This document shows, piece by piece, positions 4,299-21,910 of a stretch of 64,000 nucleotides of DNA. The DNA is from Bacilli bacterium (GTDB lineage Bacteria > Bacillota_I > Bacilli_A > RF39 > UBA660), in assembly GCA_900769695.1 (NCBI GenBank), contig CAAGHO010000055.1, positions 2,900 through 66,899 of the forward strand, in the 5' to 3' direction. A model generated the notes under the pieces. The model worked only from the letters and a program-made list of their open reading frames with translations. It ran no database searches and was not told where the DNA came from. The translations under genes were made by a program, and so were the position numbers. Each line of letters begins with the position of its first letter. Position 1 is the first letter of the stretch.

Positions 4299-4977
4299 AA
4301 GTTCCCCTTTCTTTTATACTTGTAATTCTACCATCTTTTAGGGTAATAACATCTTTTTTCATTTTATTAACAATATCTTTATCATGAGTAACCATTAGAA
4401 TAGTAGTTCCCTTTTTCTCATTGATATTTTCCAAAACTTTCATAATTTCCATACTCATATCAGGATCTAAGTTTCCTGTAGGTTCATCACATAAAAGTAA
4501 TTTTGGATTGTTGACAATCGCACGAGCAATTGAAACTCTTTGTTGTTCTCCACCTGATAGTTGGTCTGGATAGTTATGTACCTTATTTTTTAAACCAACA
4601 AGTTCAATAGCTTTTAATGTCTTTTGTCTTGTTTCTTGTTTAGTAGCACCAATAACTTCCATAGCAAAGGCTACATTTTCATATACTGTTAATTTAGGTA
4701 ATAACCTATAATCTTGGAATACAATTCCTAGCTTTCTTCTTAGTTTATATACTTTTTTATCTCTAAGTTTTGCTACATTAACTCCACCTACTACAATTTG
4801 TCCCTTAGTAGGTTTTTCTTCACGGTAAAGCATCTTTATAAAAGTACTTTTACCTGAACCAGATCCACCAATTACAAAGGTAAACGAACCCTTTTTTAAA
4901 GAAAGAGTCATATCATATATAGCTGTAACACCATTTTTATATTTTTTATTGACATTCTTAAGTCTAATTAAGTCCAT
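4282..4977 (-). CDS. ftsE: cell division ATP-binding protein FtsE
   Basis: Walker A GGSGSGKST, ABC signature LSGGEQQR, Walker B LLLCDEPTGNLD. Confidence 0.93.
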   Translation of the reverse strand: MDLIRLKNVNKKYKNGVTAIYDMTLSLKKGSFTFVIGGSGSGKSTFIKMLYREEKPTKGQIVVGGVNVAKLRDKKVYKLRRKLGIVFQDYRLLPKLTVYENVAFAMEVIGATKQETRQKTLKAIELVGLKNKVHNYPDQLSGGEQQRVSIARAIVNNPKLLLCDEPTGNLDPDMSMEIMKVLENINEKKGTTILMVTHDKDIVNKMKKDVITLKDGRITSIKERGTYDEDI

Positions 4978-5023
4978 ATCTTTAACCTCCTTAGTATGAC
5001 AATTATATCACAATTTTCGACAT

Positions 5024-5054
5024 AACAAAAGAAGAAAGCATTAATTCTTTCTTC
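5024..5054 (-). terminator. intrinsic terminator after the YitT gene pair
   Basis: Arms gaagaaag (5031-5038) and ctttcttc (5047-5054) are followed on the minus strand by TTTTGTT. Confidence 0.55.
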
Positions 5055-5056
5055 CT

Positions 5057-5974
5057 TTATCTTCCTCCTTCTACTTGATATGCATCACAAGCTAAGAAGA
5101 AGGCTTTACTATCTATTTCTTTGATACCTTCTGTTACTGCAAAATATTCTTTTGAGGGAACTACTGTTAATAAAACCATTCTTTTCTTTTCTAAAAATCC
5201 ACCTTTAACATTGAACATTGTAACATTATGATGAAGATTATCAATAATATATTTTCTTATTTCTTCATATTCTTCTGTTATTATATAAAAGGCTTTATTC
5301 TTAGATACTCCTAAAATTACTCTATCTAACATAAAACTATTTATATAAAGAATTATTAAGGCATACATTACCATTGTAAATCCAAAGAAAAATCCACCTA
5401 TTAAAACTATAATTCCATTAATTACAAAGTTGCTTTTTGATATTGGAATTTTAAACTCTTTATAAAGTATTTGACTTATTATTGGAAGACCACAATTACT
5501 AAAACCTGTTTTATACATTAAACCATTACTAAAACCACCAACTACTCCAATAAAAATTGAAATAAGAAGCAAATCATCTGGTTTAAAGTCTAGATGCAAT
5601 GATATATTAGAAGTTAATTGAACAAATAACGGATATAGGAAGGCAGCAACGATAGTTCCTGCTGCATGAGCTTTTCCTAAATACATATAACTAAATAATA
5701 ATAGAATTAATGATATAACAAACATTACTATTGATGGAGAAAATCCATAGATGTTTTTTAAAATAATCGAAATACCATTTATTCCACCAGTTACAATATT
5801 AGTTGGAACAATTAATAAATTGAAAACACAAGCTGAAATAAACATAGATATAAGTAACATCATATATCTTTTTAAAAGATGATTTCTATTAACTTTTTTT
5901 AGGATATCTTCAGGTAAAAGACTTAACTCTTCTTTATTAAAAAGATGCAAATTACTCACCTCCAAATACTTCAT
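5057..5974 (-). CDS. YitT family membrane protein (DUF2179 C-terminal domain)
   Basis: 305 aa with multi-TM N-terminal half. The C-terminal FYIIT...HNVTMFNVKGGF...LLTVV..KE... matches the YitT/DUF2179 layout. Confidence 0.8.
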   Translation of the reverse strand: MKYLEVSNLHLFNKEELSLLPEDILKKVNRNHLLKRYMMLLISMFISACVFNLLIVPTNIVTGGINGISIILKNIYGFSPSIVMFVISLILLLFSYMYLGKAHAAGTIVAAFLYPLFVQLTSNISLHLDFKPDDLLLISIFIGVVGGFSNGLMYKTGFSNCGLPIISQILYKEFKIPISKSNFVINGIIVLIGGFFFGFTMVMYALIILYINSFMLDRVILGVSKNKAFYIITEEYEEIRKYIIDNLHHNVTMFNVKGGFLEKKRMVLLTVVPSKEYFAVTEGIKEIDSKAFFLACDAYQVEGGR

Positions 5975-6833
5975 AGGAATCAGTTACAACAAAGAAAGCA
6001 TCTTTATCTATTTCATGAATTCCTTCTTTTAGACGAAAGTAATCTTTTGTAGGTAGAACACACATTAAGACATGTTGTCTTTCCTTTTTATAGCCACCTT
6101 TTGCTTGGAAAATAGTAACTCCATGATTTAAGTATTTTATAATATATTCTTTTACTTTTTCTTCTTCATCAGTTATTATATAAAAAGCTTTACTATCTGA
6201 TACTCCTAGAATAACTCGATCAGACATATAACTTATTAAGTAAAGAATTACTATAGAATACATTAAATTATTAATACCAAAAACAACTCCTGATAATATA
6301 ACTATAGTTCCATCACAGATTAACATACTTTTTCCCATACTTATCTTAAAATACTTAGATATTATTTGATTTAAGATATCGGTACCACCTGTCGTAAAAC
6401 CTGCTTTAAAGTTTATTCCTGCTCCAAAACCATAAACAACTCCAGCAAAAAGAGCTGAAAGTAAGACTTGTGAATTATCTATTTTTAAATATAAATTTAT
6501 GTCTGATGTTAAACTAACTAATATTGGAAATAAAAAACTACCTAAAATTGAAGCTTTAGTCTTCTCTTTTCCGAGTAGGAAATAACTAAGGATTAATAAA
6601 ATAATATTTACAATTAATATGAACAAAGATTTATCTATTCCAAAAAGATGATTCAAAATAATAGCTGCTCCTGAAACACCACCTGGTACTAAATCATTTG
6701 GTGATAAAAAAAGGTTAAAGCAAATAGCTAGGATACTACATCCTACAAAGAATTCCAAATATCTTTTTAATTTTGACTTGCTTTTTATTCTTTTTTCAAT
6801 AGAATCAAGCTTTTTATTTTGAAAAAATTTCAT
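5952..6833 (-). CDS. YitT family membrane protein (tandem paralog)
   Basis: 293 aa with the same architecture (FYIITDEEE...HGVTIFQAKGGY). Overlaps the downstream paralog by 23 nt. Confidence 0.8.
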   Translation of the reverse strand: MKFFQNKKLDSIEKRIKSKSKLKRYLEFFVGCSILAICFNLFLSPNDLVPGGVSGAAIILNHLFGIDKSLFILIVNIILLILSYFLLGKEKTKASILGSFLFPILVSLTSDINLYLKIDNSQVLLSALFAGVVYGFGAGINFKAGFTTGGTDILNQIISKYFKISMGKSMLICDGTIVILSGVVFGINNLMYSIVILYLISYMSDRVILGVSDSKAFYIITDEEEKVKEYIIKYLNHGVTIFQAKGGYKKERQHVLMCVLPTKDYFRLKEGIHEIDKDAFFVVTDSYEVFGGE

Positions 6834-7932
6834 TTAAACACCTCTTTCTAAATTACTTTGTATAAATAGATCAATATCTCCATCTAATACCTTGGAAACA
6901 TTACTTGTTTCTACATTAGTTCTATGATCTTTTACCATTGAATAGGGATGCATAACATAACTTCTAATTTGAGAACCAAATTCAATATTTTGTTGTCCTC
7001 CTTTAATTGTAGCTAACTCTTGCTGTTGTTTTTCTTCTTCTAATAATAATAATTTTGTTTTTAGTACTTGTAGAGCATGCTCTTTATTTTGAATTTGACT
7101 TCTTTCATTTTGACAAGTAACTACTATTTTGGAAGGAAGATGGGTAATTCTTACTGCTGAATCTGTTGTATTTACTCCCTGTCCTCCTGCTCCTGTTGAT
7201 CTATAAACATCTATCTTTAAATCTTTTTCATCTATAGTAACATCAATATCTTTCTTTATATCTGGTGTTACTTCGACTGAAGCGAAAGATGTATGTCTTC
7301 TATTATTAGAATCAAATGGTGATAATCTGACTAAACGATGAACACCTTTTTCATTTTTTAAATATCCATAGGCATTTGTTCCCTTTATTAACATAGAAAC
7401 ACTTTTAATACCTGCTTCTTCTCCATCTTGGTAATCAAGAACTTCTACTTTATAGTCTTTCCTTTCTGCATATCTTCTATACATACGATATAACATCATT
7501 GCCCAATCACAAGATTCTGTTCCTCCTGCTCCTGGATGAATCTCTAAAATGCAATTTTCTCCATCATACTTTCCACTTAGTAATAAATTTAAGCTAATTT
7601 CTGATATTTTTTTTTCAATTAGAGGAATTTCTTTTTCGATTGCTGATAAAACCTCATTGTCTTCTTCTATTTCTAATAACTCAAGTAGTTCTAAGTTTGA
7701 ATTTATTTTTGATTTTAATTCTTCTAGAGGTTCTACTATCTGTTTTAATTTATTAATTTCATCTATTATTTCAGAAGATGCATCTTTATTATTCCAAAAA
7801 CCATCTTCCATAGTTTTTTCTTCTAATTGTTTTATTTGTTTTATTTTTTTGCAGCAGTCAAAGTGACCTCCATAAATCATTTACTTTTTTTAAACTATTT
7901 GTTAGTATTTTTTCTATTTTCTCATTTGTCAT
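6834..7932 (-). CDS. prfB: peptide chain release factor 2, requires programmed +1 frameshift
   Basis: The large ORF has SPF and GGQ motifs (RSTGAGGQGVNTTDSAVRITH). A 24-codon frame-0 ORF (MTNEKIEKILTNSLKKVNDLWRSL) starts at 7932 and ends at an in-frame TGA within CTT TGA C. The track ORF start at 7880 is an artefact. Confidence 0.93.
7857..7871 (-). promoter_or_regulatory. RF2 autoregulatory +1 frameshift site
   Basis: Minus strand reads GGAGG TCA CTT TGA C. The internal SD-like GGAGG is at 7871-7867, the slippery CTT at 7863-7861 and the TGA at 7860-7858. The +1 frame continues GAC TGC TGC (DCC...). Confidence 0.9.
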
Positions 7933-8043
7933 ATTATCCCGTCCTTTTAATTATTATAAGTATTATACCTAAAATATCTTAATCAATAAATAAAATAAAT
8001 TACTTTTTTGTATATTTGGCATTTTCTTACATATTATATTAGT

Positions 8044-8118
8044 GGGGAGGGTTCACGAAGTTATGTGAAGATCCCCTGTATATAGATTGGTACTTAGAAC
8101 TATCTAGGTACCTTTTTT
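8044..8118 (+). ncRNA. candidate ~75-nt structured small RNA with its own promoter and terminator
   Basis: Promoter: -35 TTGTAT (8008-8013), 18-nt spacer, -10 TATTAT (8032-8037). Nested helix GGGGA(8044-8048)/TCCCC(8072-8076) around TTCAC(8052-8056)/GTGAA(8065-8069). Terminator hairpin ggtacttag(8089-8097)/ctaggtacc(8104-8112) plus T6. No plus-strand ORF is present. Confidence 0.35.
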
Positions 8119-8758
8119 AATTTTTAATTTTAACTCCAAACATTCCAACAATACTTGACGCTTGAAAAGTATTTATAATAATTCCATTTAAAGATTTAGA
8201 ATCAAACATAATTCCATTAACGTCACAATTAGAAAAATCTATACCTTTCAAATCTGTCATTATAAATTCAGCATTCATAAATTTTACTTTATCAAAATCT
8301 ATGTTTTTTAATTTTGATTCTGAAAATGATGATTCACTAAAATCACAATCTATTATTTTTAAATTTTCTATTTTACTAGCTGCCAAATTAATATATTTAC
8401 AACTACACTCACAAAACTCAATATTATTTAGACTACTGTCAATAAAACTTGTACCTAGTAGTTTACAATTATTAAAAGTAACTCTACTTATAAATTGCTT
8501 ATCAAAGTTTTGATTTGATAAATCACAATTTCTAAAAACAACATCAATTAAATCTACATTTTCTAGTTTTATATTACTAAAATCAATATTTTCAAATATA
8601 CAACTATCAAAGGTAGTGGAATTTACTATAATATTTTTATTTATATTATTAGCATAAATACCATCATTAAATTCATTTGTAGAAAAACTTTCTAAGATTT
8701 CTTTAGGAACGCATTTTTCTACTTTTGGAGAGCTAAATTTCATAATATTATCACCCAT
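8117..8758 (-). CDS. pentapeptide-repeat protein, Qnr/EfsQnr-like size and C-terminus
   Basis: 213 aa of tandem A(D/N)LxX pentapeptides (NIDFSNIKLENVDLIDVVFRNCDLSNQNF...). Length and C-terminal LNGIIINTFQASSIVGMFGV resemble Gram-positive chromosomal Qnr-like proteins. Confidence 0.7.
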   Translation of the reverse strand: MGDNIMKFSSPKVEKCVPKEILESFSTNEFNDGIYANNINKNIIVNSTTFDSCIFENIDFSNIKLENVDLIDVVFRNCDLSNQNFDKQFISRVTFNNCKLLGTSFIDSSLNNIEFCECSCKYINLAASKIENLKIIDCDFSESSFSESKLKNIDFDKVKFMNAEFIMTDLKGIDFSNCDVNGIMFDSKSLNGIIINTFQASSIVGMFGVKIKN

Positions 8759-8860
8759 AATTATTATATTTCTTTAATATTATAGCATATTAAGATAAAA
8801 TATTTTTAGTTTATGTCATTAATCTTAATTTTGTATGATAAAATTAAAGAAGGTGATACT

Positions 8861-9559
8861 ATGTATTTTTTAATTGGAGTAATAATCTTTATTTTATTTA
8901 TAATATTTTGTTACTTATATATTAAATTCAAAATTAAAAATATTCTTGGAAAACATGGATTTAATGGAATGAGTCTAAAAGATATAATTGAGGAAGCTAG
9001 AATTGAAGATCAAGAAGTCCCTAAATCACTTTCTAGTATGGATAGTATTTATTTAGAACAAATAAAGAAAGATTTTATTGATATAAATATAAATGAACTA
9101 AAAAGAGAAGCTGAAAAAGTAATACTTGATAGTTATAAAGCAATTGAGACAAAGGATTCTAGCAAGTTTAGTGGAAAAATAAAAAGTTTTATAGATAAAA
9201 TGATTAGTGATTATAAAGATGAAGAAGTTAGATTCAAAAACTTTAAAATTCACAATACTGTTGTAGCTAGATACAAAAAAGAAGGTGGTGTTGCGACTAT
9301 ATACTTTTCTTCTAGTTATGAATATTTTCTTGAAAGAAATGGTAAAAGTATCAAAACTCAAGATCGTGCACGAACTGAATTTATCTATATTTATGATGAG
9401 AAAAAGCTTAGTAAAGATATTAAGGCTATTGGTTTACATTGTCCAAATTGCGGAAGTCCTATAACTAGCTTAGGTGAAAAAAGTTGTTCATACTGTGGTA
9501 CTGCAGTAAAAGAACTTATTAAAAAAATATTTGTTTGCAATGACATTGTTAGATATTAA
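8861..9559 (+). CDS. membrane-anchored protein with C-terminal zinc-ribbon
   Basis: N-terminal TM MYFLIGVIIFILFIIFCYLYI. C-terminal CPNCGSPITSLGEKSCSYCG. The start at 8861 was chosen for the GAAGGTGA RBS; the track ORF starts at 8813. Confidence 0.6.
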   Translation: MYFLIGVIIFILFIIFCYLYIKFKIKNILGKHGFNGMSLKDIIEEARIEDQEVPKSLSSMDSIYLEQIKKDFIDININELKREAEKVILDSYKAIETKDSSKFSGKIKSFIDKMISDYKDEEVRFKNFKIHNTVVARYKKEGGVATIYFSSSYEYFLERNGKSIKTQDRARTEFIYIYDEKKLSKDIKAIGLHCPNCGSPITSLGEKSCSYCGTAVKELIKKIFVCNDIVRY

Positions 9560-9615
9560 AAATATAAAATAATAGCATAAATATTGTTTGTTTTGAAAGA
9601 TTATTAATAAAGCAT

Positions 9616-9641
9616 TCGAACCATTTTGGTTTGTTTTTTTT
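9616..9641 (+). terminator. intrinsic terminator
   Basis: Arms tcgaacc and ggtttg (with G-U pairs) are followed by T8. Confidence 0.5.
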
Positions 9642-9748
9642 ATTTAAAAGATGACTAAAAATTAGTATTTTTATCAAATAGTATTAATTTAATAATTTAC
9701 ATAATATTCAATGTATGCTATAATTTAAAACTTGAAAGGAATGGTTTT

Positions 9749-10081
9749 ATGACACATGAATTACCAGAATATAGCAATAACAAAAAAAACATAGAATGTA
9801 CCTTTGATAAAAACCTTATAATAAAATTAGTATCAATGATATTGACTAATACTCCTGAGTATATAACTAACAAGTTTTCTAATAAAAAACAATCACAAAA
9901 AATATTGTGTATAACTGAAGAAATTATTCAGATACAAAGCAATAATCCTATAATGATTTCAAGAAATAAACAAACAAAAAGAATTGAACAAGCAAAAGCT
10001 TTTGCTTCATATTACGAACAAGCAAAAATTAATATTAATAAAAAAGCAAAAAAAAGTCCAGTTCAAAGGGTAAAAAAGTAA
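9749..10081 (+). CDS. hypothetical basic protein
   Basis: 110-aa ORF preceded by the extended -10 TGCTATAAT and a GAAAGGAATGG RBS. No family recognised. Confidence 0.45.
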   Translation: MTHELPEYSNNKKNIECTFDKNLIIKLVSMILTNTPEYITNKFSNKKQSQKILCITEEIIQIQSNNPIMISRNKQTKRIEQAKAFASYYEQAKININKKAKKSPVQRVKK

Positions 10082-10202
10082 TATCATGTTACTTATGTAA
10101 TTGTTATCATTCTTAAATGAATTCAATAAATAGAATTCAAACTATATATAAAAGAATAGATAATTCGTTTACTTTATTCAGCAAGTTTTATTTATAATTA
10201 TT

Positions 10203-10236
10203 ATAAAAAGAAGCAGTTTTTTAAATCTGCTTCTTT
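10203..10236 (-). terminator. intrinsic terminator closing the fibre gene cluster
   Basis: Arms aagaagcag (10208-10216) and ctgcttctt (10227-10235) are followed on the minus strand by TTTTTAT. The hairpin overlaps the stop codon. Confidence 0.6.
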
Positions 10237-10783
10237 ATTGATTTTCTTCAAGTATTATTTGACCATCTATAATAGGTATATTAGGGAAACTTGCATCCAT
10301 TAACGTGAAGTTTCTAACTGGTGCTGGTGGATTTGTTATTTGAACTGTTTCAGATGATTGAGTCATAACAATTGATTTAACAGTATCATCAAACGTATGA
10401 CCTCCATCACCTGATATTTGTTTATAATATATTGCTGTACTATTAGATTCTGCAAATGGGACATTATTAAATACGGCATTTCCATCATCATTTGTTGTTA
10501 TTTCATTTCCAACGATTGTTCCTGTACTATCTGTTCTTATAAACTTAGCACCAATAATTTGTACCCCAGTATCAGGATTTCCCGTATCTGTAACATGAAG
10601 TGTTAAAGTCCCTGTTGCACTTATTGTAAATGCATATGTAGTTGTTCCATCAATAATATTTACACTTTTAGGATCAAGAGTTGATGCATCATATCCACCG
10701 GCTACAGCTTGAGCTTTATATGTTCCTGTAACAAGTTCAATACTTCCTTTACCATTTGTTATTGGGATTGTATGTCTTGCCAT
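10235..10783 (-). CDS. small beta-sandwich (prealbumin/CnaB-like) protein, no signal peptide
   Basis: 182 aa. TLTLHVTDTGNPDTGVQIIGAKFIRTDSTGTIVGNEITTNDDGNAVFNNVPF fits the carboxypeptidase-regulatory/CnaB-like strand pattern. The C-terminal tail FTLMDASFPNIPIIDGQIIL is shared with the upstream ORF. Confidence 0.55.
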   Translation of the reverse strand: MARHTIPITNGKGSIELVTGTYKAQAVAGGYDASTLDPKSVNIIDGTTTYAFTISATGTLTLHVTDTGNPDTGVQIIGAKFIRTDSTGTIVGNEITTNDDGNAVFNNVPFAESNSTAIYYKQISGDGGHTFDDTVKSIVMTQSSETVQITNPPAPVRNFTLMDASFPNIPIIDGQIILEENQ

Positions 10784-11109
10784 AATATCATCTTTCCTCC
10801 TTCTATTTTTATATTTGGATAATATTTATCCGTCAATAAAACTGTAACAAGATGGTCCTTTCTTTTATAATTTCCAACGTTTATAAAATAAAACTTATTC
10901 TTTCTTGCAATTAAAGGTATTTTCATAATTGATAAACTGGAATATACAATTAATTTATATACTTCATTATTACATATTGGTATCTTAACTCTTCCAAAAT
11001 TATCCGTAACACCTTCAAAAACGTTCTTATTACATTTATCTTTTAGCTTTACTCTTAAATTACTGTTTTCATTACTACAAATTTTAATATAAATATAATC
11101 ACTTGTCAT
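10759..11109 (-). CDS. small beta-sandwich protein, no signal peptide
   Basis: 116 aa. RVKLKDKCNKNVFEGVTDNFGRVKIPICNNEVYKLIVYS shows a prealbumin-like pattern. The C-terminal tail VLLTDKYYPNIKIEGGKMILW matches the downstream ORF, which it overlaps by 25 nt. Confidence 0.5.
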   Translation of the reverse strand: MTSDYIYIKICSNENSNLRVKLKDKCNKNVFEGVTDNFGRVKIPICNNEVYKLIVYSSLSIMKIPLIARKNKFYFINVGNYKRKDHLVTVLLTDKYYPNIKIEGGKMILWQDIQSQ

Positions 11110-11163
11110 AATTCACCTCATTACAATATATTGTATGAATCAAATTTCTTTTTTGTAAAGGCA

Positions 11164-13020
11164 TTATGCCTCAATACTCCAAACTATTAATGTGGAATAA
11201 TCTTCATCTTCCAATAAATTCTTACTAGGTTTTAAAAACAATCCTTTATCAGTAGAAAATGTAATATTACTAATATTTACACTTCCACCATTATCATTTG
11301 ATTCATATATTAACTTTTTTTGTGTCTTCAAAATAATTTTCTCATTATCAAATTTCTTAAAAAATAGTGAGTCTATTAAAACTTTACCAGTTGCTTCTAT
11401 CATTGGATTTATAAAATTTATATACAATCTCCAATTAGTACTATTTACTCTACTATCAACAACAGTTACCACTGTTTCATTTTTTTTAGATAAAATAGTT
11501 GGATTAGTAGAAGATGGAATCATACTAAACGGAATATTTTCTGTTACTTTTAAAAGAGTTAACTCTCCCATAAATGGAGTAGTTACTTTTCTTTCACTAA
11601 AACAGCAGTTTAAACAAGAAATAATTTTAATTCTTGTATCATCTGTAATAATAGAGTCAATATTTACTTCGAAAAGACCATTTTCATCTGCTGTTGCTGT
11701 TAAACTTTTATTATTGTATTCTATTTTGACATTTGCGTAAGGTATAGTATGTCCTGAAATTGCATTTATAGAATCTATAATTGGATGAACGTTTATCTTA
11801 AGCATTCCAATAGTTAATATTTTTATATTTTGTAGTGTAAAATTATTTATATCAGGCAGTGAAGCTAATTCGGTATCTGTAAAATTATGTGATGTAACTG
11901 TAGTACTATCTTTATTTAAGATACCTGTTATTTTAACTGGTGTATCTTCTTTATACCAGCAAAATGCTGGCGTATCATCAATATTACAAGCTGAGGTATA
12001 ATCAAGGGCATATAACCACAAATTAATTCTACTAAAATTAAACATAAAATCAACTGGATTATTAGTATAGACTACATTAGCATTTTTAGTGTAAATATTC
12101 ATATATTTTGGATTATCCAGTATAAACTTTTGATTTGTACCCTTAAAATAAATATTATAATTATCAGTAGGTGTTTTCATATACGTATTTATTACTGATA
12201 TACTTGCTCCTTCTTTAACCGTAAAATCTCCAAATACATTCCACATAGGAACTCTTTGGTGACTTTTTTCTATAAATGTAAATTTAGCCATTTCTTCTAT
12301 TAAAACATTTCTAGCACCATGTGTTGTTGTTATTGCAAAACCATTTCCTGTCGTTAAAAGAAATTCTGATCCATGCCCTACTATTAAGTCTAACCTATTA
12401 GTTCCATTCATAAGTTCTTTATTAGTTGTAATACTTACATTACTATTAGGAACTATTTTAATATAAGATGGTATAACATCATTAAAAAAGAAAACTGTGT
12501 TTGTATTGGAACTGCTTGTGATTGTTGTATTTCCTCCAATTATAATCCTATTAGAGTCACAAACTCTTTGAGTAGAAACATTATTTGTGTCTTTTGCCTC
12601 TATAAGAGAATCAACGATTTTAGTTGTTCCATAATAATTACATGATAGTTCTACTCCACTAAAATTTATATTATTATATTCTACTACCACATTAGAATAA
12701 TTGGGATGAGAAGGAACATAAATAACTCCATGACCATGTGAAGATATTATATTCATATTTTTTAATATAATTTTTTTATTAGTTGTACTTACCTTTATAA
12801 CATTTGCTTCTGAACTCAAGTTATTTGTATAAGTATGTTTAGTATTGTTGTAAGTTCCATCAATAATAACTTTACTTTTATTACTATTTATAACAAAACC
12901 ACTTGTCATTGTAATGTCATTTCCTAAATAAATATAACTATAATTATTTTCTTCGCTCAATATTTGTTCTAATTCCTCACTATTATTTATTACAATAGTA
13001 TTATCATTTATTATTTGCAT
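11164..13020 (-). CDS. large beta-helix (pectate-lyase-like adhesive) / Ig-like / WxL-domain protein lacking a signal peptide
   Basis: 618 aa. The N-terminal ~400 aa are N/I/V/T-rich short beta-rungs beginning VINNSEELEQIL...IYLGNDITM. An Ig-like segment follows (GHTIPYANVKIEYNNKSLTATADENGLFEVNI). The C-terminal ~140 aa have the WxL layout (LTLLKVTENIPF...VVDSRVNSTNWRLYI...YSTLIVWSIEA). No upstream start or leader. Confidence 0.6.
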   Translation of the reverse strand: MQIINDNTIVINNSEELEQILSEENNYSYIYLGNDITMTSGFVINSNKSKVIIDGTYNNTKHTYTNNLSSEANVIKVSTTNKKIILKNMNIISSHGHGVIYVPSHPNYSNVVVEYNNINFSGVELSCNYYGTTKIVDSLIEAKDTNNVSTQRVCDSNRIIIGGNTTITSSSNTNTVFFFNDVIPSYIKIVPNSNVSITTNKELMNGTNRLDLIVGHGSEFLLTTGNGFAITTTHGARNVLIEEMAKFTFIEKSHQRVPMWNVFGDFTVKEGASISVINTYMKTPTDNYNIYFKGTNQKFILDNPKYMNIYTKNANVVYTNNPVDFMFNFSRINLWLYALDYTSACNIDDTPAFCWYKEDTPVKITGILNKDSTTVTSHNFTDTELASLPDINNFTLQNIKILTIGMLKINVHPIIDSINAISGHTIPYANVKIEYNNKSLTATADENGLFEVNIDSIITDDTRIKIISCLNCCFSERKVTTPFMGELTLLKVTENIPFSMIPSSTNPTILSKKNETVVTVVDSRVNSTNWRLYINFINPMIEATGKVLIDSLFFKKFDNEKIILKTQKKLIYESNDNGGSVNISNITFSTDKGLFLKPSKNLLEDEDYSTLIVWSIEA

Positions 13021-13083
13021 ATTATCACTTTCCTTTGTTATATCTTATGGCTTCAATCAATTTTGAAATAATTAATTCATAAC

Positions 13084-13109
13084 AAAAAAAGAGTGAGATT
13101 TCCACTCCT
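13084..13109 (-). terminator. weak intrinsic terminator after the collagen-like gene
   Basis: Minus strand reads GAGTG-gaaatct-CACTC followed by T7. Confidence 0.4.
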
Positions 13110-14252
13110 TTAATGTATTTTAGTTACACTTAGAACTGCATTAGTACTTCCATTAAATATTAGACTAACTGCCATAGATGCCTTTACATTTAATGTAACG
13201 AGATCATCTTTACTAAGAGATACAATAGTTGAACCACTTATGCAGTTAATTATTTGTGCTTGAAACTCACTAGTTGCATTCGTAGCTGGTTGTAGTATAT
13301 CATTTGCCCTTACAGACATAGTTAATGAACAATCTTCATTTGTTGCACCACATAATGAATATGATACTAGGTAAGTTCCATTTTCTTTTATTCTTATTGA
13401 ATTACCATCTGGATAATCTGTAAGAAAAGCTGTCCCTTTTTCAGGTAGTGGTATTATTGTATCAGTCCCTTGCGATAATGTTAGTTGTGTAGTAACCATT
13501 GAATATCTAATCCCATAAGCAGATACAAACTCTGTTCCTGGAGGACCTGCTGGTCCTTGTTGTCCTCTTTCTCCAACGTCGCCTTTTTCTCCTTTTGGAA
13601 TTAAAAACGCTAAATGATGTACCCAATTTTCAAATGTATCCATGACTTGAGCAGGCTCCCCTGGTTCTAAAGTTTCAGTTTCATCTATAGCAATGTGTTC
13701 TGTCCTTCCTATTTCTCCTGGTAATCCCCTTGGTCCAATATCTCCTTGGTCTCCTTTTTCGCCTTTTGGTATTTTAAAATCTAAAACTACATCTACTGGT
13801 GTACCAACATTTATAACTTCTGCTTCTTCATTAGATTCTATTGTTTCAATATTTCCAATTTGAATAGTTGATGGTCCTTGATCTCCTTTTTCACCTTTTA
13901 TTCCTTGTGGACCAATATCACCTTTTTCACCTTTAGGACCAGGAATACCTTGTGGACCAATTTTACCATCGATTCCTTGTTCTCCCCTTGGTATTTTGAA
14001 ATTCAAAATAACATCCTCTTTTGTTCCAACATTTTCTACTTTAGCATCTTCAGAAGATTCCACAGTTTCTGTAATTCCGACATCAATACTTGCAGGTCCA
14101 GGAATACCTCTATCTCCCTTTTCTCCTTGTGAACCAACATCTCCTTTTTCACCTTTTGGTCCCGTTGGACCTTTTACATAATAAAACTTACATTTTCTTC
14201 TATATTCTTCTTGTTTTTTTCTTATTTGTTCCCAATCATTACAATTATTCAT
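13110..14252 (-). CDS. collagen-like triple-helix repeat protein with C1q/TNF-like (BclA C-terminal-like) head
   Basis: 380 aa. Four GXY runs (GPTGPKGEKGDVGSQGEKGDRGIPGP etc.) alternate with three ~40-aa modules ending (F/L)xIPxGExG. The C-terminal ~140-aa beta-rich domain (ENGTYLVSYSL...VRANDIL...DLVTLNV...AVLSVTKIH) resembles the BclA/C1q jelly-roll. Strong RBS AGAGGAGGA. No signal peptide. Confidence 0.8.
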   Translation of the reverse strand: MNNCNDWEQIRKKQEEYRRKCKFYYVKGPTGPKGEKGDVGSQGEKGDRGIPGPASIDVGITETVESSEDAKVENVGTKEDVILNFKIPRGEQGIDGKIGPQGIPGPKGEKGDIGPQGIKGEKGDQGPSTIQIGNIETIESNEEAEVINVGTPVDVVLDFKIPKGEKGDQGDIGPRGLPGEIGRTEHIAIDETETLEPGEPAQVMDTFENWVHHLAFLIPKGEKGDVGERGQQGPAGPPGTEFVSAYGIRYSMVTTQLTLSQGTDTIIPLPEKGTAFLTDYPDGNSIRIKENGTYLVSYSLCGATNEDCSLTMSVRANDILQPATNATSEFQAQIINCISGSTIVSLSKDDLVTLNVKASMAVSLIFNGSTNAVLSVTKIH

Positions 14253-14307
14253 TATACATCCTCCTCTAATTTTTAGAATTAATTCTCATATTTCAATTCT
14301 TCTATGT

Positions 14308-14334
14308 TAATTTATGAAAATATTTTTGAAATGT
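14308..14334 (-). promoter_or_regulatory. sigma-K-type promoter match upstream of the collagen-like gene
   Basis: Minus strand reads AC (14334-14333), 16 nt, CATAAATTA (14316-14308). This equals the B. subtilis sigma-K consensus AC-N16/17-CATAnnnTA. It lies ~55 nt upstream of the ATG. Confidence 0.3.
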
Positions 14335-14462
14335 ATAATTAATATATAATAAGATATTTATACTAAAAAAGGTTATTATTCTTAAATCTATTTAAGATTA
14401 TTTCTATGGTGTATATATGACTTATATAGTTTTTTATTCGAATAATAATATTTTTGGAATTT

Positions 14463-14961
14463 CTAAAGAACTTGCTGAATTACTCTTAATAAATAGCATA
14501 TACATCTTTCTGCATTATAACAAAAGATATTTTGTCCTTGTGGACTTTTAATAGTCATTTTTCCTATTTCAAATATTTCATCATTTAATGCAAAACCTTG
14601 AACCATATAATCTTTAATTATTTTATTTGCCCAAGTTCTAAATTTAATTGCTTTTTTAGAGTTAACCCTAAAACCTATTGAAATGATCATATCAAGATTA
14701 TAATATTTTGTGTTATAAACTTGTTTGCCGTCATTACCCATATGTGCAATTTTTGCACACGTGCTATTTCCATCCAACTCTTCATCTTTATAAATGTTGT
14801 TAATATGTCTTACAATTCCACTTCTATCAATATTAAAAAGCGCTGCTAATGCTTCAGTATTTAACCAAACATCTTCATTTTCTAATAGCACTTCTACTTT
14901 TGTATTTCCTTCAGTATCATTATAAAATATTTTTCTCATTTCCAATTAATTTATTATCCAT
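14463..14961 (-). pseudogene. RhuM-family virulence protein remnant (frameshifted N-terminus, truncated C-terminus)
   Basis: NDTEGNTKVEVLLENEDVWLNTEALAALFNIDRSGIVRHINNIY...YNLDMIISIGFRVNSKKAIKFRTWANKIIKDYMVQGF matches RhuM N-terminal halves. A strong GGAGG RBS serves the ATG at 14961 (MDNKLIGNEK), which is out of frame by one nt at an A5 run. Similarity ends near aa 125 of an expected ~300 or more. Confidence 0.7.
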
Positions 14962-15104
14962 GTTCTATCCTCCTTTTCAAAATATTTTTAGTTAATTTAT
15001 AATAGACATTATACTATTTTTTATATTATATAACAATCAATTTGCTCGAATTCGACCAAATTAAATCTTATTAAAAAGGACACAATATTAATTGCCTCCT
15101 CTTA

Positions 15105-16373
15105 CTATTTTAATATATTTATTATGTTATCTATGTTAACAATTTCTTTTTTATTTGTTTTTGTATCTTCTACTTCATAATTAGTTCCATCAAATTTTGT
15201 ACCTAATATAATCATTTTTGGTGTTCCTAAAACATAAACATCATTTATTCTATTTCCAATATTTAAATTTTCTCTATCATCAATTATTGCATTAATATTA
15301 TTTTGTAGTAAATAATTATACAATTTTTCCACTTCTTCTTTATTATTTTCATTGTATATTATTTGTACTTTATAAGATGCTATATCATATGGTAAAGCAA
15401 AACCTTTGATTTTATTATTTTCTTTAATAACATTATTTTCTATTAAACAAGCAATTATTCTTCCTAAACCAATTCCATAACATCCCATATAATATGGTTT
15501 TTTCTCATTATTTTCATCCATATAGAAAAATCCCATACTATCAGAATATTTTGTTCCAAGTTGGAAATTATTTCCTAATTCAACAGTACTATATTCTTTT
15601 AAACCAGCAATATTACTTACTCCTAATTGTTTAAGATATTCATCCTTATTTTCAAATTCTAAAACTTCTTTATTAATACCGATATTTTTTTCTTCATCAT
15701 AAAGAGTTTTGTCTTCTCCTAAATTTGTAATTGCTTGAAATTCTTCTGCAACTTTTCCACCTATAACACCATTATCACTAACGGTTGGTATAATTTTGAT
15801 GCCTAATCTTTTAAATATATTTAAATATACCTGATGCATTAGTTCATATGTCTTTTGCATATCTTCTTCAGTTTTATCAAATGAATAAGCATCCATCATA
15901 ACAAAAGTTCTTGGTCTAAATAAATAACCTCTAGTTCTGATTTCTTTTCTAAATTTTTCACCTATTTGATAATAAATAGCTGGTAAATTTTTATATGAAG
16001 ATAATCTATTGGCACCAAATAAAGTAGCACATTCTTCTGCAGTTGGAGCAAGTCCATATTCACCTAAATTGTTTTTTATTGTAAACATTATATCTCCATC
16101 TTTTGTATAGGTATTCCATCTGCCTGATTGTTCCCATATTTTTCTTGGTTGAAGTTTTGGAAATTCTACTTGAATACATCCTGCCTTATCTAATTCCTCA
16201 ATGATGACATTTTCAACTTTTCTTTCTAATTTTGTCCATAAATTACCATAACCATAAATACCACTTTCAAATTGATATAATTCTCCTAATTTCATCAAAA
16301 TATCTTGGCCAAAGTAATCACTATCAATATCATTTAGATTAATCTTTTTAATATTTAATCTACTTAATCTCAT
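15105..16373 (-). CDS. proS: proline--tRNA ligase, bacterial-type but lacking the INS editing domain
   Basis: SGIYGYGNLW...LQPRKIWEQSGRWNTY, YQIGEKFRKEIRTRGYLFRPRTFVMMDAYSF (motif 2) and GCYGIGLGRIIA (motif 3). Only ~130 aa separate motifs 2 and 3, for 422 aa in total. The start at 16373 follows the T-box terminator; the track start at 16424 lies inside it. Confidence 0.85.
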   Translation of the reverse strand: MRLSRLNIKKINLNDIDSDYFGQDILMKLGELYQFESGIYGYGNLWTKLERKVENVIIEELDKAGCIQVEFPKLQPRKIWEQSGRWNTYTKDGDIMFTIKNNLGEYGLAPTAEECATLFGANRLSSYKNLPAIYYQIGEKFRKEIRTRGYLFRPRTFVMMDAYSFDKTEEDMQKTYELMHQVYLNIFKRLGIKIIPTVSDNGVIGGKVAEEFQAITNLGEDKTLYDEEKNIGINKEVLEFENKDEYLKQLGVSNIAGLKEYSTVELGNNFQLGTKYSDSMGFFYMDENNEKKPYYMGCYGIGLGRIIACLIENNVIKENNKIKGFALPYDIASYKVQIIYNENNKEEVEKLYNYLLQNNINAIIDDRENLNIGNRINDVYVLGTPKMIILGTKFDGTNYEVEDTKTNKKEIVNIDNIINILK

Positions 16374-16590
16374 TTTATTCACCCTTTCTTTAAAACAAAA
16401 AAAGGATAGCATATAAGGAGTCATTAAGACGGTGCCATCCTTTTATTTTACTTAATTTTGATAACGGCTATTTACCGGAAATGTTTTCATTTCACTCTGA
16501 AGATAGGAATTAAATAGTATCATAACTTGTTCACACTATACCAAGCCCACTTTTATGCTTAACTAATTAATATTTCTTCGTCACTGATTT
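16374..16590 (-). promoter_or_regulatory. T-box riboswitch leader, putative proline (CCU) specifier
   Basis: Stem I base GAAG/CTTC with AGUGA...AGAGUGA K-turn-like elements. Specifier-loop 3' side is UUCCUAU, with CCU (16507-16505) followed by a purine. T-box sequence AAAAGGAUGGCACCGUC (around 16440-16428). Terminator AAGGAUGGCA/UGCUAUCCUU plus U7 (16443-16395). Confidence 0.8.
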
Positions 16591-16597
16591 GCAACAT

Positions 16598-16626
16598 ATT
16601 ATATCATAAATTTTAATTGCCCGCAA
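16598..16626 (-). promoter_or_regulatory. sigma-A promoter of the proS T-box leader
   Basis: Minus strand reads TTGCGG (16626-16621), 17 nt, then the extended -10 TGATATAAT (TATAAT at 16603-16598). Confidence 0.6.
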
Positions 16627-16796
16627 ATTATTTTTGTTCACACCTTTATTTTACTACATATTTTTAATATTTTGTGGACAAGTTATAAAACTCGAACCAA
16701 TTTATCTTTTTAAAAATTTAAATCTTTCCCTTATTTTATGCTACTTTCCGCAACAATTCTTATATTTTTTTCCCGAACCACAAGTTCCGTTCAATC

Positions 16797-16888
16797 TAGT
16801 ATTTATGTTATTTATAGTATATATAGTATTTCCTTATTTTGTGGTACCAACCACATTAGTATTTATAGTATTTATGTTACTTATGGTA
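16797..16888 (+). repeat. AT-rich direct repeats (23-mer x2, AGTATTTAT 9-mer x3) with an embedded palindrome
   Basis: tagtatttatgttaYttatRgta occurs at 16797-16819 and 16866-16888 (21/23 identical). An extra tagtatttat is at 16857-16866. Palindrome TGTGGTaccaACCACA at 16840-16855. Confidence 0.7.
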
Positions 16889-16903
16889 CTATATATATTC
16901 TAT

Positions 16904-17430
16904 AAAATGAGGACAAAATGAGGTAATTTACCTCTTTTCCTTATTTTGAACTTCAAATAGCTTTTTAAACTACTCCTTCCTTTCAAACTTCATTATAATT
17001 ATACTATATTTTTAACAAATATTAGAAACAGTAGTAATAACTTTGCTATCTTTTTATGTTTCTTGCATATTGTAATCTTTTTAAACTTCTTTTAGATACT
17101 GGACTAGATTTTATAGAGTCATATTCCGCTTTTTCCGAGCATTTCATTCTGTATTCAATATCGTTATCATAATCTTGCATACATTTATTTAAAGTCATTA
17201 TAAAATCCATTAATTCCTTTTTTGATAAATCTGCAAAAGTTCTAGACCTATTATTTTGATTCATTTAAATCTTCTCTTTTCTTAACTAATCTTTTTTGAC
17301 CGTCATTTTTATTTAATAATAAAGAATGTTGACATTTACCTCATTTTGTCCGCATTCAAAAATCCTTGATTTTAAAGTCTTTGTGAAAGTTTTTACCTCA
17401 TTTCCAAAAAAATGAGGTAAAAATGAGGTA
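16904..17430. repeat. family of 11-bp AAAATGAGGTA motifs in helical phase plus a 21-bp inverted repeat pair
   Basis: Plus-orientation tandem copies at 16904-16914/16915-16925 and 17409-17419/17420-17430. Minus-orientation copies at 17337-17347 (plus degenerate 17348-17358) and 17394-17403. IR AATG(A/C)GGACAAAATGAGGTAA at 16906-16926 versus 17336-17356 (20/21). 13-bp perfect hairpin 17391-17403/17410-17422. Confidence 0.85.
17046..17264 (-). CDS. hypothetical small basic protein bracketed by the inverted repeats
   Basis: 72-aa ORF with a weak RBS and no recognised family. It is the only ORF in a 1.1-kb noncoding stretch. Confidence 0.3.
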   Translation of the reverse strand: MNQNNRSRTFADLSKKELMDFIMTLNKCMQDYDNDIEYRMKCSEKAEYDSIKSSPVSKRSLKRLQYARNIKR

Positions 17431-17511
17431 AAATTCTTATTTTTTTGTAATTTTTTCAATTTTAAAATTTTTTAGAATCTCACAGATCCTTAATTCATAA
17501 GGGTTTGCGAA

Positions 17512-20004
17512 TTATTTACCACAACATTGTTTATATTTCTTACCACTTCCACAAGGGCAAGGATCATTTCTACCAATTTTACTTACTCTTTTTGGCTTTT
17601 TCTTAGGAGCCTCAGATTCACTCTCATTTGTTATTTTTTTCTTTGAAACTTCTTTTCTTTCTATATTTTGTTTTACTTCTGCACGTAATAAGAAAGTTGA
17701 TATATCTTTATCTATTTTTTGAACCATGTCATCAAATAAATCAAATCCTTCCATGGTATAAGCACGTAATGGATCTTCTTGAGCATATCCTCTTAGATAG
17801 ATACCTTCTCTTAAATGAGACATTGTATTAATATGTTCCATCCAATAATGATCTATAACTTGTAAAGATATTGCTTTTTCAAATTCGTCTGTTACTTCAG
17901 CTGGGATATCTTTTAATTTTTCTTCATATTCTTTGATTACTAATTTTGATATCTTATCTATTACATCTTCAACTTCCATGTTTGTTATTTGAGACTTTTT
18001 CATATCCTTCTTTAATAAATTCTCATTACTAAAGTCAACAATATCATCTAAGTCTTGTTCTGTTAAATAACCTTCTGGTGCAATATGAGATTTTACTAAA
18101 TCTGAAATGTGATTTCTAAATGTTGTTAAAACTGTCTCATGAATAGATTCAGAATCAAGTATTTCATTTCTTTTATCATACATAATTTCTCTTTGATTAT
18201 TCATTACATCATCATATTGAAGTAATTGTTTACGAATATCAAAGTTATTTCCTTCTACTCTTTTTTGAGCTGTAGTTATGGATTTAGTAAATGTTTTACT
18301 TTTAATTGCTTGATCGCCCAATCCCATATTTTCCATCATAGTACCAATTCTATCTGAACCAAATCTGACCATTAAATCATCCTTCATTGAAACAAAGAAT
18401 TGTGTATAACCAGGATCTCCTTGACGACCAGAACGTCCTCTTAACTGATTATCAATACGACGTGATTCATGACGTTCTGTACCAACAACACATAAACCAC
18501 CTAATTGTTTAATTTCTTCTGACAATTTGATATCAGTTCCACGTCCTGCCATATTAGTTGCGATTGTTACTGATTTATGTTGACCTATTTTAGAAATTAT
18601 TTCAGCCTCGCGTGCATGATTCTTAGCATTTAATACTTCATGTGGAATATGAGCTTGTTTTAACAAACTACTAATTAATTCACTTGTTTCAATAGCAATA
18701 GTACCTATTAAAACAGGTTGACCTTTTTCATAACGTTCCTTAACAAATTCTATAATTGCTTTATATTTAGCTTCACGTGTTGCATAAACTAAATCTGGTT
18801 CATCATCTCTTATTACAGGTCTATTAGTAGGTATTTCAATAACATACATATTATAAATGTTTCTAAATTCTTCTTCTTCTGTTTTAGCAGTACCAGTCAT
18901 ACCTGATAGTTTTTTATACATTCTGAATAAATTTTGGAAAGTAATTGTCGCTAAAGTTTTTGTTTCTTGATTAATATTAACTCCTTCTTTTGCTTCAATT
19001 GCTTGATGTAAGCCATCAGAATAAGCTCTTCCTTTCATTAAACGTCCAGTAAATTGATCAACTATTACTATTTCACCATCTTGTACAACATAATCAACGT
19101 CATTTTTCATAGCATAGTTAGCACGTAATGCTTGATTTATATAGTGAACTAAAGTAGCATTTTCTACTTCATATAGATTAGAAATCTTAAATGTTTTTTC
19201 AGCTTTTTCTGTTCCTTCATCTGTTAATGTAACAGCCTTTGTCTTTTCATCATAAATATATTCTTTTTCTGCTTTTAAGCTTTTAGCAAATTTATCTGCA
19301 GAAATATAAAGATTTGCACTAGACATTTCTCCACCTGAAATAATAAGAGGAGTTCTTGCCTCATCAATTAATACTGAGTCAACTTCATCGATAATTGCAA
19401 AATTAAGTGGTCTTTGAACTCTATCTTCTTTTCGAACAACCATATTATCACGAAGATAATCAAATCCAATTTCATTATTTGTTGAATAAGTAATATCGCA
19501 ATTATAAGCTTCTTGTTTTTCTTTAGGTGATAAATCTCTAGTATTAACTCCAACAGTTAATCCTAAGAATCTATGGATTCCACCCATCCATTCAGCATCA
19601 CGTCCTGCTAGATACTCATTAACAGTAATAATATGAACGCCTTTTCCTTCTAAAGCATTTAAATATGCTGGAAGAACTGATGTCAAAGTTTTTCCTTCAC
19701 CTGTTTTCATTTCTGCTATATTACCATAATGAATAGCTAAAGCTCCTAGAATTTGAACATAGAAATGCTTTTCGCCAATAACTCTGTATGCTGCTTCTCT
19801 AGCAACAGCAAAAGCCTCAACCAAAATATCATCTAGAGTTTCTCCAGCTTTTAATCTTTCTTTAAATTCACTTGTTTTATTTTGTAATTCTGTATCAGTT
19901 AAATTAGACATTTCTTCATCTAATTCCATTACTTGATCAGCCAACTTTGTAAATCTTTTTAATTCTTTATATTCATGATCAAACATTTTTAAAATATTCA
20001 CCAT
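17512..20004 (-). CDS. secA: preprotein translocase ATPase SecA
   Basis: 830 aa. MKTGEGKTL Walker A, DEVDSVLIDEARTPLIIS, TNMAGRGTDI, and the C-terminal zinc motif CPCGSGKKYKQCCG. Confidence 0.97.
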   Translation of the reverse strand: MVNILKMFDHEYKELKRFTKLADQVMELDEEMSNLTDTELQNKTSEFKERLKAGETLDDILVEAFAVAREAAYRVIGEKHFYVQILGALAIHYGNIAEMKTGEGKTLTSVLPAYLNALEGKGVHIITVNEYLAGRDAEWMGGIHRFLGLTVGVNTRDLSPKEKQEAYNCDITYSTNNEIGFDYLRDNMVVRKEDRVQRPLNFAIIDEVDSVLIDEARTPLIISGGEMSSANLYISADKFAKSLKAEKEYIYDEKTKAVTLTDEGTEKAEKTFKISNLYEVENATLVHYINQALRANYAMKNDVDYVVQDGEIVIVDQFTGRLMKGRAYSDGLHQAIEAKEGVNINQETKTLATITFQNLFRMYKKLSGMTGTAKTEEEEFRNIYNMYVIEIPTNRPVIRDDEPDLVYATREAKYKAIIEFVKERYEKGQPVLIGTIAIETSELISSLLKQAHIPHEVLNAKNHAREAEIISKIGQHKSVTIATNMAGRGTDIKLSEEIKQLGGLCVVGTERHESRRIDNQLRGRSGRQGDPGYTQFFVSMKDDLMVRFGSDRIGTMMENMGLGDQAIKSKTFTKSITTAQKRVEGNNFDIRKQLLQYDDVMNNQREIMYDKRNEILDSESIHETVLTTFRNHISDLVKSHIAPEGYLTEQDLDDIVDFSNENLLKKDMKKSQITNMEVEDVIDKISKLVIKEYEEKLKDIPAEVTDEFEKAISLQVIDHYWMEHINTMSHLREGIYLRGYAQEDPLRAYTMEGFDLFDDMVQKIDKDISTFLLRAEVKQNIERKEVSKKKITNESESEAPKKKPKRVSKIGRNDPCPCGSGKKYKQCCGK

Positions 20005-20091
20005 ATCATCTCCCTTAATTAATTATTGTAACAAAAAAAAAGAAAGAATTAAAGCATATTGCTAAAAATTCTTTCAATTATATTATATTTT

Positions 20092-20619: not shown

Positions 20620-20668
20620 ATCATCGCCTCCTATTTTTATTATAGCACCTTTATATGAAAAAAACCAC

Positions 20669-21716: not shown

Positions 21717-21768
21717 ATATCAATTTATTTGATGTTTATAATATAGGAAATTAAGAAAGGAGATTATT

Positions 21769-21891: not shown

Positions 21892-21910
21892 TTTTTAAAT
21901 ATTATAAATT

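Follow-up and report, generated by a model that had tools for sequence, protein, structure and literature searches.

Several leaderless protein systems decorate bacterial spores, and others anchor adhesins to cell walls. Among the former are the BclA-type collagen-like proteins (BclA of Bacillus anthracis, BclA1-3 of Clostridioides difficile and the tip fibrilla proteins L-BclA and F-BclA) and the endospore appendages (ENA: S-/L-ENA with DUF3992; F-ENA with DUF4183, F-Anchor and F-BclA), which are spore-surface fibres with collagen-like anchor or tip proteins. The ENA subunits are coupled by donated terminal peptides and disulfides, and the clostridial F-Anchor-3 carries DUF11 (PMC12357932). 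The locus of the ribbon appendages of Clostridium taeniosporum (P29a/b, GP85, CL2, CRD1/2) combines collagen-like and DUF11 proteins under sigma-K promoters, and its products are assembled by the mother cell (PMC5749712). The WxL/Csc clusters of enterococci, lactobacilli and listeriae encode a small WxL protein, a large WxL protein and WxLIP, made of DUF916, DUF3324 and a transmembrane helix. We analysed a four-gene cassette (genes A to D, positions 10235-14252) in a stretch of 64,000 nucleotides from a Bacilli genome, hereafter the window. Sequence comparisons make it fairly probable that this cassette is a module of the spore surface whose genes the mother cell expresses late in sporulation, a localisation and a mode of assembly that we infer from these genes.

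The cassette resembles each described system in part. The product of A is leaderless like the BclA-type proteins, with a GXY stalk and a BclA_C/C1q-TNF-like head; the sigma-K-type promoter and the lack of a signal peptide, expected for deposition by the mother cell, are also found in A. It differs in having a charged N-terminus with two Cys in place of the Bacillus exosporium leader, three inserts of ~40 aa in the stalk that resemble phage fibre stalks, and a linkage to a WxL adhesin instead of ExsF/BxpB or ENA subunits. Distant relatives of B sit in WxL/Csc clusters, and B also has small beta-rich partner proteins; but no component of the cassette has a signal peptide or a transmembrane anchor, small WxL and WxLIP are missing, B is instead accompanied by a collagen-like protein, by C and D and by a DUF11 protein, and the promoter elements are of sporulation type. 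The N-terminal domain of B is the same kind of right-handed beta-solenoid as in the serine-rich repeat protein (SRRP) SRRP-BR of Lactobacillus reuteri (5nxk/5ny0), yet B has neither the accessory Sec export, nor the glycosylation, nor the LPXTG anchor of the SRRPs. The C. taeniosporum locus lacks a beta-solenoid/WxL protein, and the DUF11 gene of our window lies 9 kb from the cassette. The ENA subunit domains DUF3992 and DUF4183 have no match in A-D (Pfam, E≤1). An earlier reading of this DNA (the original prediction) had spoken of a candidate spore-surface appendage system, a term that we drop for lack of such a pilus subunit. In the literature that we searched, no paper mentioned both WxL and exosporium.

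A conserved four-gene cassette without export signals

Gene A (14252..13110; 380 aa) encodes a leaderless collagen-like protein, gene B (13020..11164; 618 aa) a leaderless adhesin-like protein with beta-solenoid, Ig-like and WxL domains, gene C (11109..10759; 116 aa) a leaderless protein that matches no family and has three conserved Cys, and gene D (10783..10235; 182 aa) a leaderless protein that has its own GGAGG ribosome-binding site. All four are on the minus strand of the window, which has a GC content of ~26% and lies close to the replication origin (dnaA at 61486). We thus recovered the four co-oriented genes of the original prediction at the same coordinates, and our sequence scan agrees with its claim that they lack signal peptides, lipoboxes and sortase motifs: none of these, no LPXTG-type motif and no transmembrane or hydrophobic segment was found in A-D (the maximal Kyte-Doolittle score over 19 residues is 1.43). 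Hidden signal peptides are ruled out because each listed open reading frame (ORF) already begins at the earliest start codon that the upstream stop permits, which leaves no room for a longer N-terminus. The absence of export and anchoring signals from all four proteins is conserved across species. An intrinsic-terminator-like hairpin followed by a T run lies directly after A (13087..13111, minus strand), where it would act as a partial stop between A and B, and this architecture was found again in most loci. Another terminator-like hairpin, GAAGCAG...CTGCTTC with a T run, was read from the sequence after D (10205..10233, minus strand) and closes the conserved block.

Relatives of B at 68-97% identity were identified in 62 species-representative metagenome-assembled genomes (MAGs), labelled as uncultured Bacilli, Tenericutes or Mollicutes, as Clostridium sp. 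CAG:433, CAG:417 and CAG:302, or as Acholeplasma sp. CAG:878. The four genes co-occur in these other genomes: the order A-B-C-D is kept in ~57 of 63 species-representative genomes, and the flanking genes vary. Within the species, nucleotide homology spans 14407..10125; between species it is restricted to 14363..10187, i.e., from promoter to terminator. All four genes are under purifying selection, with ratios of non-synonymous to synonymous substitution rates (dN/dS) of 0.10-0.17 for A, 0.14-0.19 for B, 0.21-0.36 for C and 0.11-0.27 for D, and as the values are this low in all of them (0.10-0.36), none of the genes is decaying. In our reading, the ~4.2-kb block (about 14407..10125) is part of the chromosome of an uncultured, low-GC lineage of gut Bacilli, probably of the order RF39, and is maintained there vertically as a cassette.

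A collagen-like protein and a leaderless WxL adhesin

The stalk of A consists of four GXY runs of 9, 13, 7 and 7 triplets (36 in all) that are broken by the three non-collagen inserts, of ~40 aa each. The protein matches the Pfam Collagen profile with E=5e-16 (58.6 bits for a cut-off of 27.2 bits). Its head matches BclA_C (PF18573) with E=1.6e-8 along residues 263-379 and nearly the whole profile, at a score of 35 bits that is just under the 38-bit cut-off. PF18573 is present in the precomputed annotation of relatives of the head at 70-84% identity, and no solved structure was matched by the head by sequence alone. With these domains, A is a BclA-type collagen-like protein, much as it had been described at first (a GXY collagen with a C1q/BclA-like head). 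Its N-terminus, MNNCNDWEQIRKKQEEYRRKCKFYYVKGP, has a charged segment between two conserved Cys (MNNCN..KxCY), and the pattern MNNCN..ERIRKKIEEERKKYKFCY..GP is kept across species.

Four kinds of evidence agree on the architecture of B: an SRRP/Pectate_lyase_5-type right-handed beta-solenoid (~1-390), a Big_6 Ig-like domain (~410-480) and a WxL domain (~485-618) with the motifs NWRL and VWSI. Relatives of B end in ...W.L.DAP. The AlphaFold2 model has a predicted local distance difference test score (pLDDT) of 94.1 and a predicted TM-score of 0.90. A profile of the B family (53 relatives) gave three matches among solved structures: 5nxk, the beta-solenoid of L. reuteri SRRP (6e-14); 7dm0, from the Ig-like part of Bap (2e-13); and 9i25, a WxL domain (E=2.7e-13, profile positions 473-622). 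Foldseek searches with the model retrieved SRRP structures with TM-scores of 0.63-0.64 normalised to the target. Of the 53 relatives, Pfam assigned Pectate_lyase_5 to 35, Big_6 to 23 and WxL to 6. Because model, profiles, Foldseek and Pfam concur, the initial call of a 618-aa beta-helix, Ig-like and WxL protein was right. The SRRP-like beta-solenoid would point to a role in binding polysaccharides or epithelium.

Distant relatives of B were retrieved only by exhaustive search, which produced ~400 clusters (at 50% identity) related to it; word-indexed searches with B, D and the head of A gave close relatives only. Among 97 full-length representatives of the family, 52 are leaderless and 40 carry a signal peptide. 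The leaderless proteins have ~600-650 residues and start right at the beta-solenoid, whereas the others have a signal peptide plus a low-complexity linker, and the two forms are largely separate in a neighbour-joining tree. The leaderless start of B, MQIINDNT, is conserved among its relatives. The two relatives with a signal peptide that we inspected (L070 and L071) belong to canonical smallWxL-WxLIP(PGBD+HBD)-largeWxL clusters. By homology, B belongs to the adhesins of the large-WxL family and is one of the leaderless members, from which the export signal has been lost. The original prediction was correct in describing a leaderless WxL protein and overlooked this large family, including the members with signal peptides in canonical WxL clusters. 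In two GC-richer lineages the leaderless B-like gene is duplicated in tandem: in L064 (8001..11841; 636 and 636 aa) the first copy has a full promoter-like element of the kind described below, and in L073/L074 (3106..6875; 630 and 624 aa) the first copy has an element with one mismatch and the second has none.

Two small coupled proteins

Genes C and D overlap by 25 nt, an arrangement kept in 53 of 57 loci, and judged from it they are translationally coupled. Their products have in common a C-terminal motif of 20 residues (DKYYPNIKIEGGKMIL in C, DASFPNIPIIDGQIIL in D), D..[YF]PNI.I..G..IL, for which hhalign gives a probability of 87% (E=3.8e-6). The motif is nearly invariant across species and does not occur elsewhere in the six-frame translation of the window. 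Scans of the profile libraries gave no family match at all for C, and for D only sub-threshold matches to SpaA (E=0.0014-0.006) and CarboxypepD_reg (E=0.02-0.065). Neither protein resembles the WxLIP and small-WxL sequences of L070/L071 (hhalign probabilities <1%) or has such matches in Pfam, and no homology to DUF11 was found for either. We also considered, and retain as no more than a speculation, that the N-terminus of D is the back half of a CarboxypepD_reg-like sandwich whose first strands come from the tail of C or D, by head-to-tail complementation or circular permutation. Permuted constructs of D aligned to the internal domains with hhalign probabilities <3%, and in Pfam the match of permuted D widened from profile positions 36-74 to 13-76 with a gain of 1.5 bits (E=0.022). 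As this gain was all that the permuted sequences provided, there is no sign that C or D polymerises.

A recurrent DUF11 partner and the sporulation context

The window encodes a leaderless, single-domain DUF11 (CLIPPER / B_ant_repeat) protein of ~129 aa (576..965, minus strand), 9 kb from the cassette, and the leader of this gene, CATAGAATTATTGTAGGAAGGTGA, resembles those of B and C. We inspected the surroundings of the leaderless relatives of B in eight lineages, as listed: L063, L064, L066/L067, L068, L069, L072, L073/L074 and L075. In seven of the eight, a small leaderless single-domain DUF11 protein (~125-150 aa) is encoded next to the B homologue (L063 12042..12434; L064 7218..7601; L066 7429..7857; L068 136..528; L069 4211..4609; L073 2549..3004; L075 2850..3230); the contig of L072 is too short to reveal any neighbour. 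This recurrent partner of the leaderless forms had escaped the original prediction. DUF11/CLIPPER domains have a CnaA-like fold, are often stabilised by isopeptide bonds and resist heat and proteases (PMC12617251), properties that would suit a spore layer. Beyond C. taeniosporum, whose appendage locus places collagen-like and DUF11 proteins under sigma-K promoters (PMC5749712), they are found in the spore proteins CrdA/B/C of the Bacillus cereus group and in the clostridial F-ENA anchor (PMC5749712, PMC12357932).

Sporulation genes occur in the window and near the relatives of B. We found the previously noted spoIIR (30859..31380, E=7e-40) and SpoIIQ-like LytM gene (26458..27105, an M23 protein, E=3e-51), both below the curated cut-offs of NCBIfam. 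L063 is a MAG of related Bacilli, and a sporulation sigma factor of SigK/SigE type (E=4e-49) is encoded there ~0.8 kb from the B homologue; in L069 a YlbD_coat gene adjoins the homologue. The order RF39 has been predicted to form spores (PMC10868615).

Promoter-like elements upstream of A, B and C-D

The sigma-K consensus is AC-N16/17-CATAnnnTA as quoted in PMC5749712. A promoter-like element of this type, ACATTTCAAAAATATTTTCATAAATTA (AC-N16-CATAnnnTA), lies 56 nt upstream of the start codon of A (14308..14334, minus strand), and is the sigma-K-type match that had been reported for the collagen gene. Another, ACAAAAAAGAAATTTGATTCATACAATA (AC-N17-CATAnnnTA, readable as AC-N17-CATACAATA), lies 20 nt upstream of C (11129..11156, minus strand) and would serve C-D. 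Upstream of B there is a -10-like element, CATAAGATA (CATAAATTA in most other species; 13041..13049, minus strand). The three elements have the core CATAAAtTA in common. Promoters of sigma-K and sigma-E are not distinguishable by sequence alone.

What gives weight to these elements is their conservation, not the match itself. In 32 loci the region upstream of A retains the full pattern, and in 35 that of C does. Over 1.15 Mb of loci, 67 of the 82 matches in promoter position are upstream of A or C, and they are the only recurrent ones. In the alignments upstream of A, the -35 and -10 blocks are conserved and the downstream 5' untranslated region is variable; upstream of C, TTTACA and TTCATAAAATA are conserved as blocks and the spacer that separates them varies, in the manner of a footprint.

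We also examined GC-richer loci (46-56% GC: L064, L066/L067, L068, L072 and L073/L074, with L067 an identical copy of L066), given that at 50% GC the full pattern is expected by chance ~0.002 times per 60-nt upstream region. Three of these five loci (L064, L066/L067, L068) have the full AC-N17-CATAnnnTA in front of the leaderless B homologue; with L064 and L068 counted as one, because they are metagenome contigs from adjacent runs with similar upstream regions, this makes two of four distinct lineages. The DUF11 partners of L068 and L073/L074 are preceded by it too, and the DUF11 genes next to leaderless B homologues often have a CATAnnnTA element of their own. No sigma-K-type element was found in the signal-peptide controls, L070 and L071. 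Elsewhere in the window, the gene of a pentapeptide-repeat protein (8117..8758, 213 aa) has an AC-N17-CATAAACTA match 49 nt upstream, kept only in the loci of the same species.

A putative spore-surface module

If the cassette acts at the spore surface, its three units, A, B and C-D, would be transcribed with sigma-K or its near look-alike sigma-E, both of them sigma factors of the mother cell. The proteins would accumulate in the cytoplasm of the mother cell and assemble on the outermost layer of the spore; A-D would need no signal peptide because they would be made in that cytoplasm. The collagen stalk and C1q-like head would allow A to trimerise into a hair-like fibre, which its Cys-flanked N-terminus would cross-link to the base. 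B would display its beta-solenoid on the Ig spacer as an adhesin binding the host or glycans, and would dock by its WxL domain. For the canonical systems, a beta-hairpin of WxLIP has been predicted to slot into the WxL domain (PMC10599100). We regard the C-terminal motif shared by C and D as a candidate for the element that plays the part of this hairpin here, which would make the two proteins adaptors or anchors. The DUF11 (CLIPPER) protein encoded 9 kb away would probably be part of the same layer. The original idea of leaderless proteins laid down by the mother cell fits every comparative test that we ran; the appendage found no support, and the folds assigned to C and D were not confirmed.

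A broader scenario, which we put forward as tentative, concerns the family of B as a whole. Roughly half of the large-WxL/Pectate_lyase_5 family (counted as at least 52 clusters at 50% identity, in low-GC and in 46-56% GC Firmicutes) may have been co-opted from Sec-dependent display on the vegetative wall to sigma-K-dependent display on the spore surface, with a DUF11/CLIPPER partner. As part of the same proposal, the hairpin of C and D in the RF39-like cassette may insert into the WxL domain and so dock B, and perhaps also the collagen fibre. What would be new, already for the cassette itself, is a collagen or adhesin layer of the spore surface built from a family that had so far been known from the walls of vegetative cells only.

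Several observations weigh against a function on spores. WxL domains are cell-wall-binding modules of vegetative cells. The exosporium leader TIGR03720 is absent from A (NCBIfam scan, E≤1), but this leader is specific to Bacillus and its absence therefore does not exclude a location on the spore. The stalk of A matches tail-fibre families of PHROGs and the tail fibre of an Eggerthella phage (33.5% identity over 99% of the query, E=2e-12), and collagen-like stalks generally resemble phage fibre stalks. The prealbumin-like beta-sandwich folds first proposed for C and D were not confirmed: the matches of D are all sub-threshold, C has none, and the AlphaFold2 model of D has a pLDDT of 38.8 (from an alignment of 25 sequences at 72-92% identity). 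The sigma-K pattern is not enriched across the window (11 matches for 8.3 expected) and no known gene of the sigma-K/sigma-E regulon of this lineage is among the fetched loci. Cross-species alignments upstream of B show the -10 part only, with no conserved AC at -35; the element of C can also be read as a sigma-A-like TTTACA-N18-TAAAAT; and the B homologues of L072 and L073/L074 have no full pattern upstream. The assignment to the order RF39, to which the MAG names CAG:433, CAG:417 and CAG:302 correspond, is a probable one. Lastly, the cassette genes have a synonymous divergence (dS) of 0.36-0.95, which falls short of the secA value in four of six genome pairs (L003, L004, L012 and L013; window positions 10187..14363). 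In the pairs with L035 and L039, B has a higher dS than secA (0.91-0.95 vs 0.80-0.81); in three pairs A, B and D are closer than SecA in amino-acid identity (81-90% vs 65-71%). The low dS hints at mobility of the cassette and could mean exchange between species, or else strong codon constraint.

RF39-like Bacilli are common bacteria of the human gut, were never cultured and have reduced genomes, and the way they move between hosts is unexplained. A spore-surface function would make the cassette proteins molecular candidates for attachment, clumping and host recognition of the spores of this lineage, and antigens with which to find and sort them. It would extend the WxL fold from an anchor of the vegetative cell wall to one of the spore surface. 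For the family at large it would imply an unrecognised and widespread class of spore adhesins, and a new spore-coat/exosporium family (leaderless large-WxL plus small DUF11) that current lists of sporulation genes miss in many uncultured Firmicutes.

Alternative explanations

The cassette could encode an adhesin complex of the vegetative cell surface, exported non-classically by lysis, a holin-like mechanism or an unrecognised secretion system, where the WxL domain of B binds the cell's own peptidoglycan, as in lactobacilli and enterococci, and A forms a surface fibre. B is after all a bona fide large-WxL protein with signal-peptide relatives in canonical cell-surface clusters, the window includes peptidoglycan genes (murA, mreB and a class A penicillin-binding protein), and the promoter of C admits the sigma-A-like reading. 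We nevertheless find this unlikely. Signal peptides have been lost consistently, from all four proteins as well as from 52 clusters of the family, the locus has no small WxL or WxLIP partner (Pfam, hhalign), and the flanking ORFs of 63 loci include no secretion genes linked to the cassette. As for transcription, the conserved C of the CATA block is typical of sigma-E/K and not of sigma-A, and in the GC-richer loci the full pattern accompanies the B homologues or their DUF11 partners but not the signal-peptide controls. If instead the four genes are merely adjacent and function independently, their conservation would reflect local synteny and no shared structure. Such independence would account for the three promoter-like elements and the terminator after A, which suggest three transcription units, and for the leaderless B homologues of other lineages that occur without A, C or D. 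It sits poorly with an order and spacing that are kept while every flanking gene changes, with the C/D overlap of 25 nt in 53 of 57 loci and the C-terminal motif common to both proteins, and with the same CATAAAtTA core in all three upstream elements, and we accord it very little probability.

The original prediction had offered a decaying or domesticated prophage tail-fibre module as the competing explanation. In such a module, left beside the debris of mobile elements by a phage or tailocin, A would be a receptor-binding fibre, B a tailspike-like beta-helix, and C and D small assembly or adaptor proteins. The stalk matches of A fit this view, as do the remnants of RhuM/Bro-N or fragments of integrases that several loci carry close to the cassette, the discreteness of the block with its varying neighbours and a dS lower than that of secA, and the overlapping pair of small genes, which recalls phage assembly genes. 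Homology searches tell otherwise: tblastn with B, D and the head of A against 50,697 phage genomes gave no match, IMG/VR holds no confirmed close relatives of B or D, the fold matches of B in BFVD are generic beta-helices (TM-score ≤0.31), and a nucleotide search of the cassette against phages matched the collagen repeats only. The nearest relatives of B are cellular adhesins. The clustering of flanking ORFs across the 63 loci revealed housekeeping and variable genes and no conserved phage gene; capsid, tail, baseplate, lysis and integrase genes are not conserved beside the cassette, and at none of these loci is it embedded in an intact prophage tail module. The RhuM segment stops short of the promoter of A, on its upstream side, and two genomes of this species lack it altogether. 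With four intact genes at dN/dS of 0.10-0.36 in ~57 species, and no phage homologues of B, D or the head of A, we consider a phage origin of this kind highly improbable and the notion of decay untenable.

Strain variation and neighbouring genes

The RhuM remnant previously noted next to the cassette was located at 14463..14945 and covers positions 1-68 of the 252 of the profile. It belongs to a segment (14408..17487) that includes the RhuM/Bro-N remnant and a paralogue resembling class-II aminoacyl-tRNA synthetases (15105..16424), and that ends ~155 nt upstream of the start codon of A. L001 and L002, two genomes of the same species, lack this segment and hold other sequence in its place, so the remnant and the paralogue lie outside the cassette. 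The region is a strain-variable insertion hotspot just upstream of the promoter of A, and an N-terminal integrase fragment is found there in L001 and two other loci. Downstream of the cassette terminator, ~510 nt (9615..10124) are missing in L001 as well; they include an ORF of 110 aa (9749..10081) with no family match. As a check for integration sites, we searched positions 1..24000 of the window for tRNA genes and found none.

The commonest neighbour of the cassette is another collagen-like gene, present in 15 loci. Such extra genes lie within 7 kb of the cassette in ~15 of the 63 loci (L046, L057 and others), on either strand, and some differ in their N-termini and have GPT-rich repeats; the one at 2334 in L057 has its own AC-N17-CATAnnnTA. 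An agr-like set is located ~7 kb from the cassette in the window and comprises AgrB (21126..21716, plus strand), a GHKL histidine kinase (22007..23344) and a LytTR response regulator (23316..24050).

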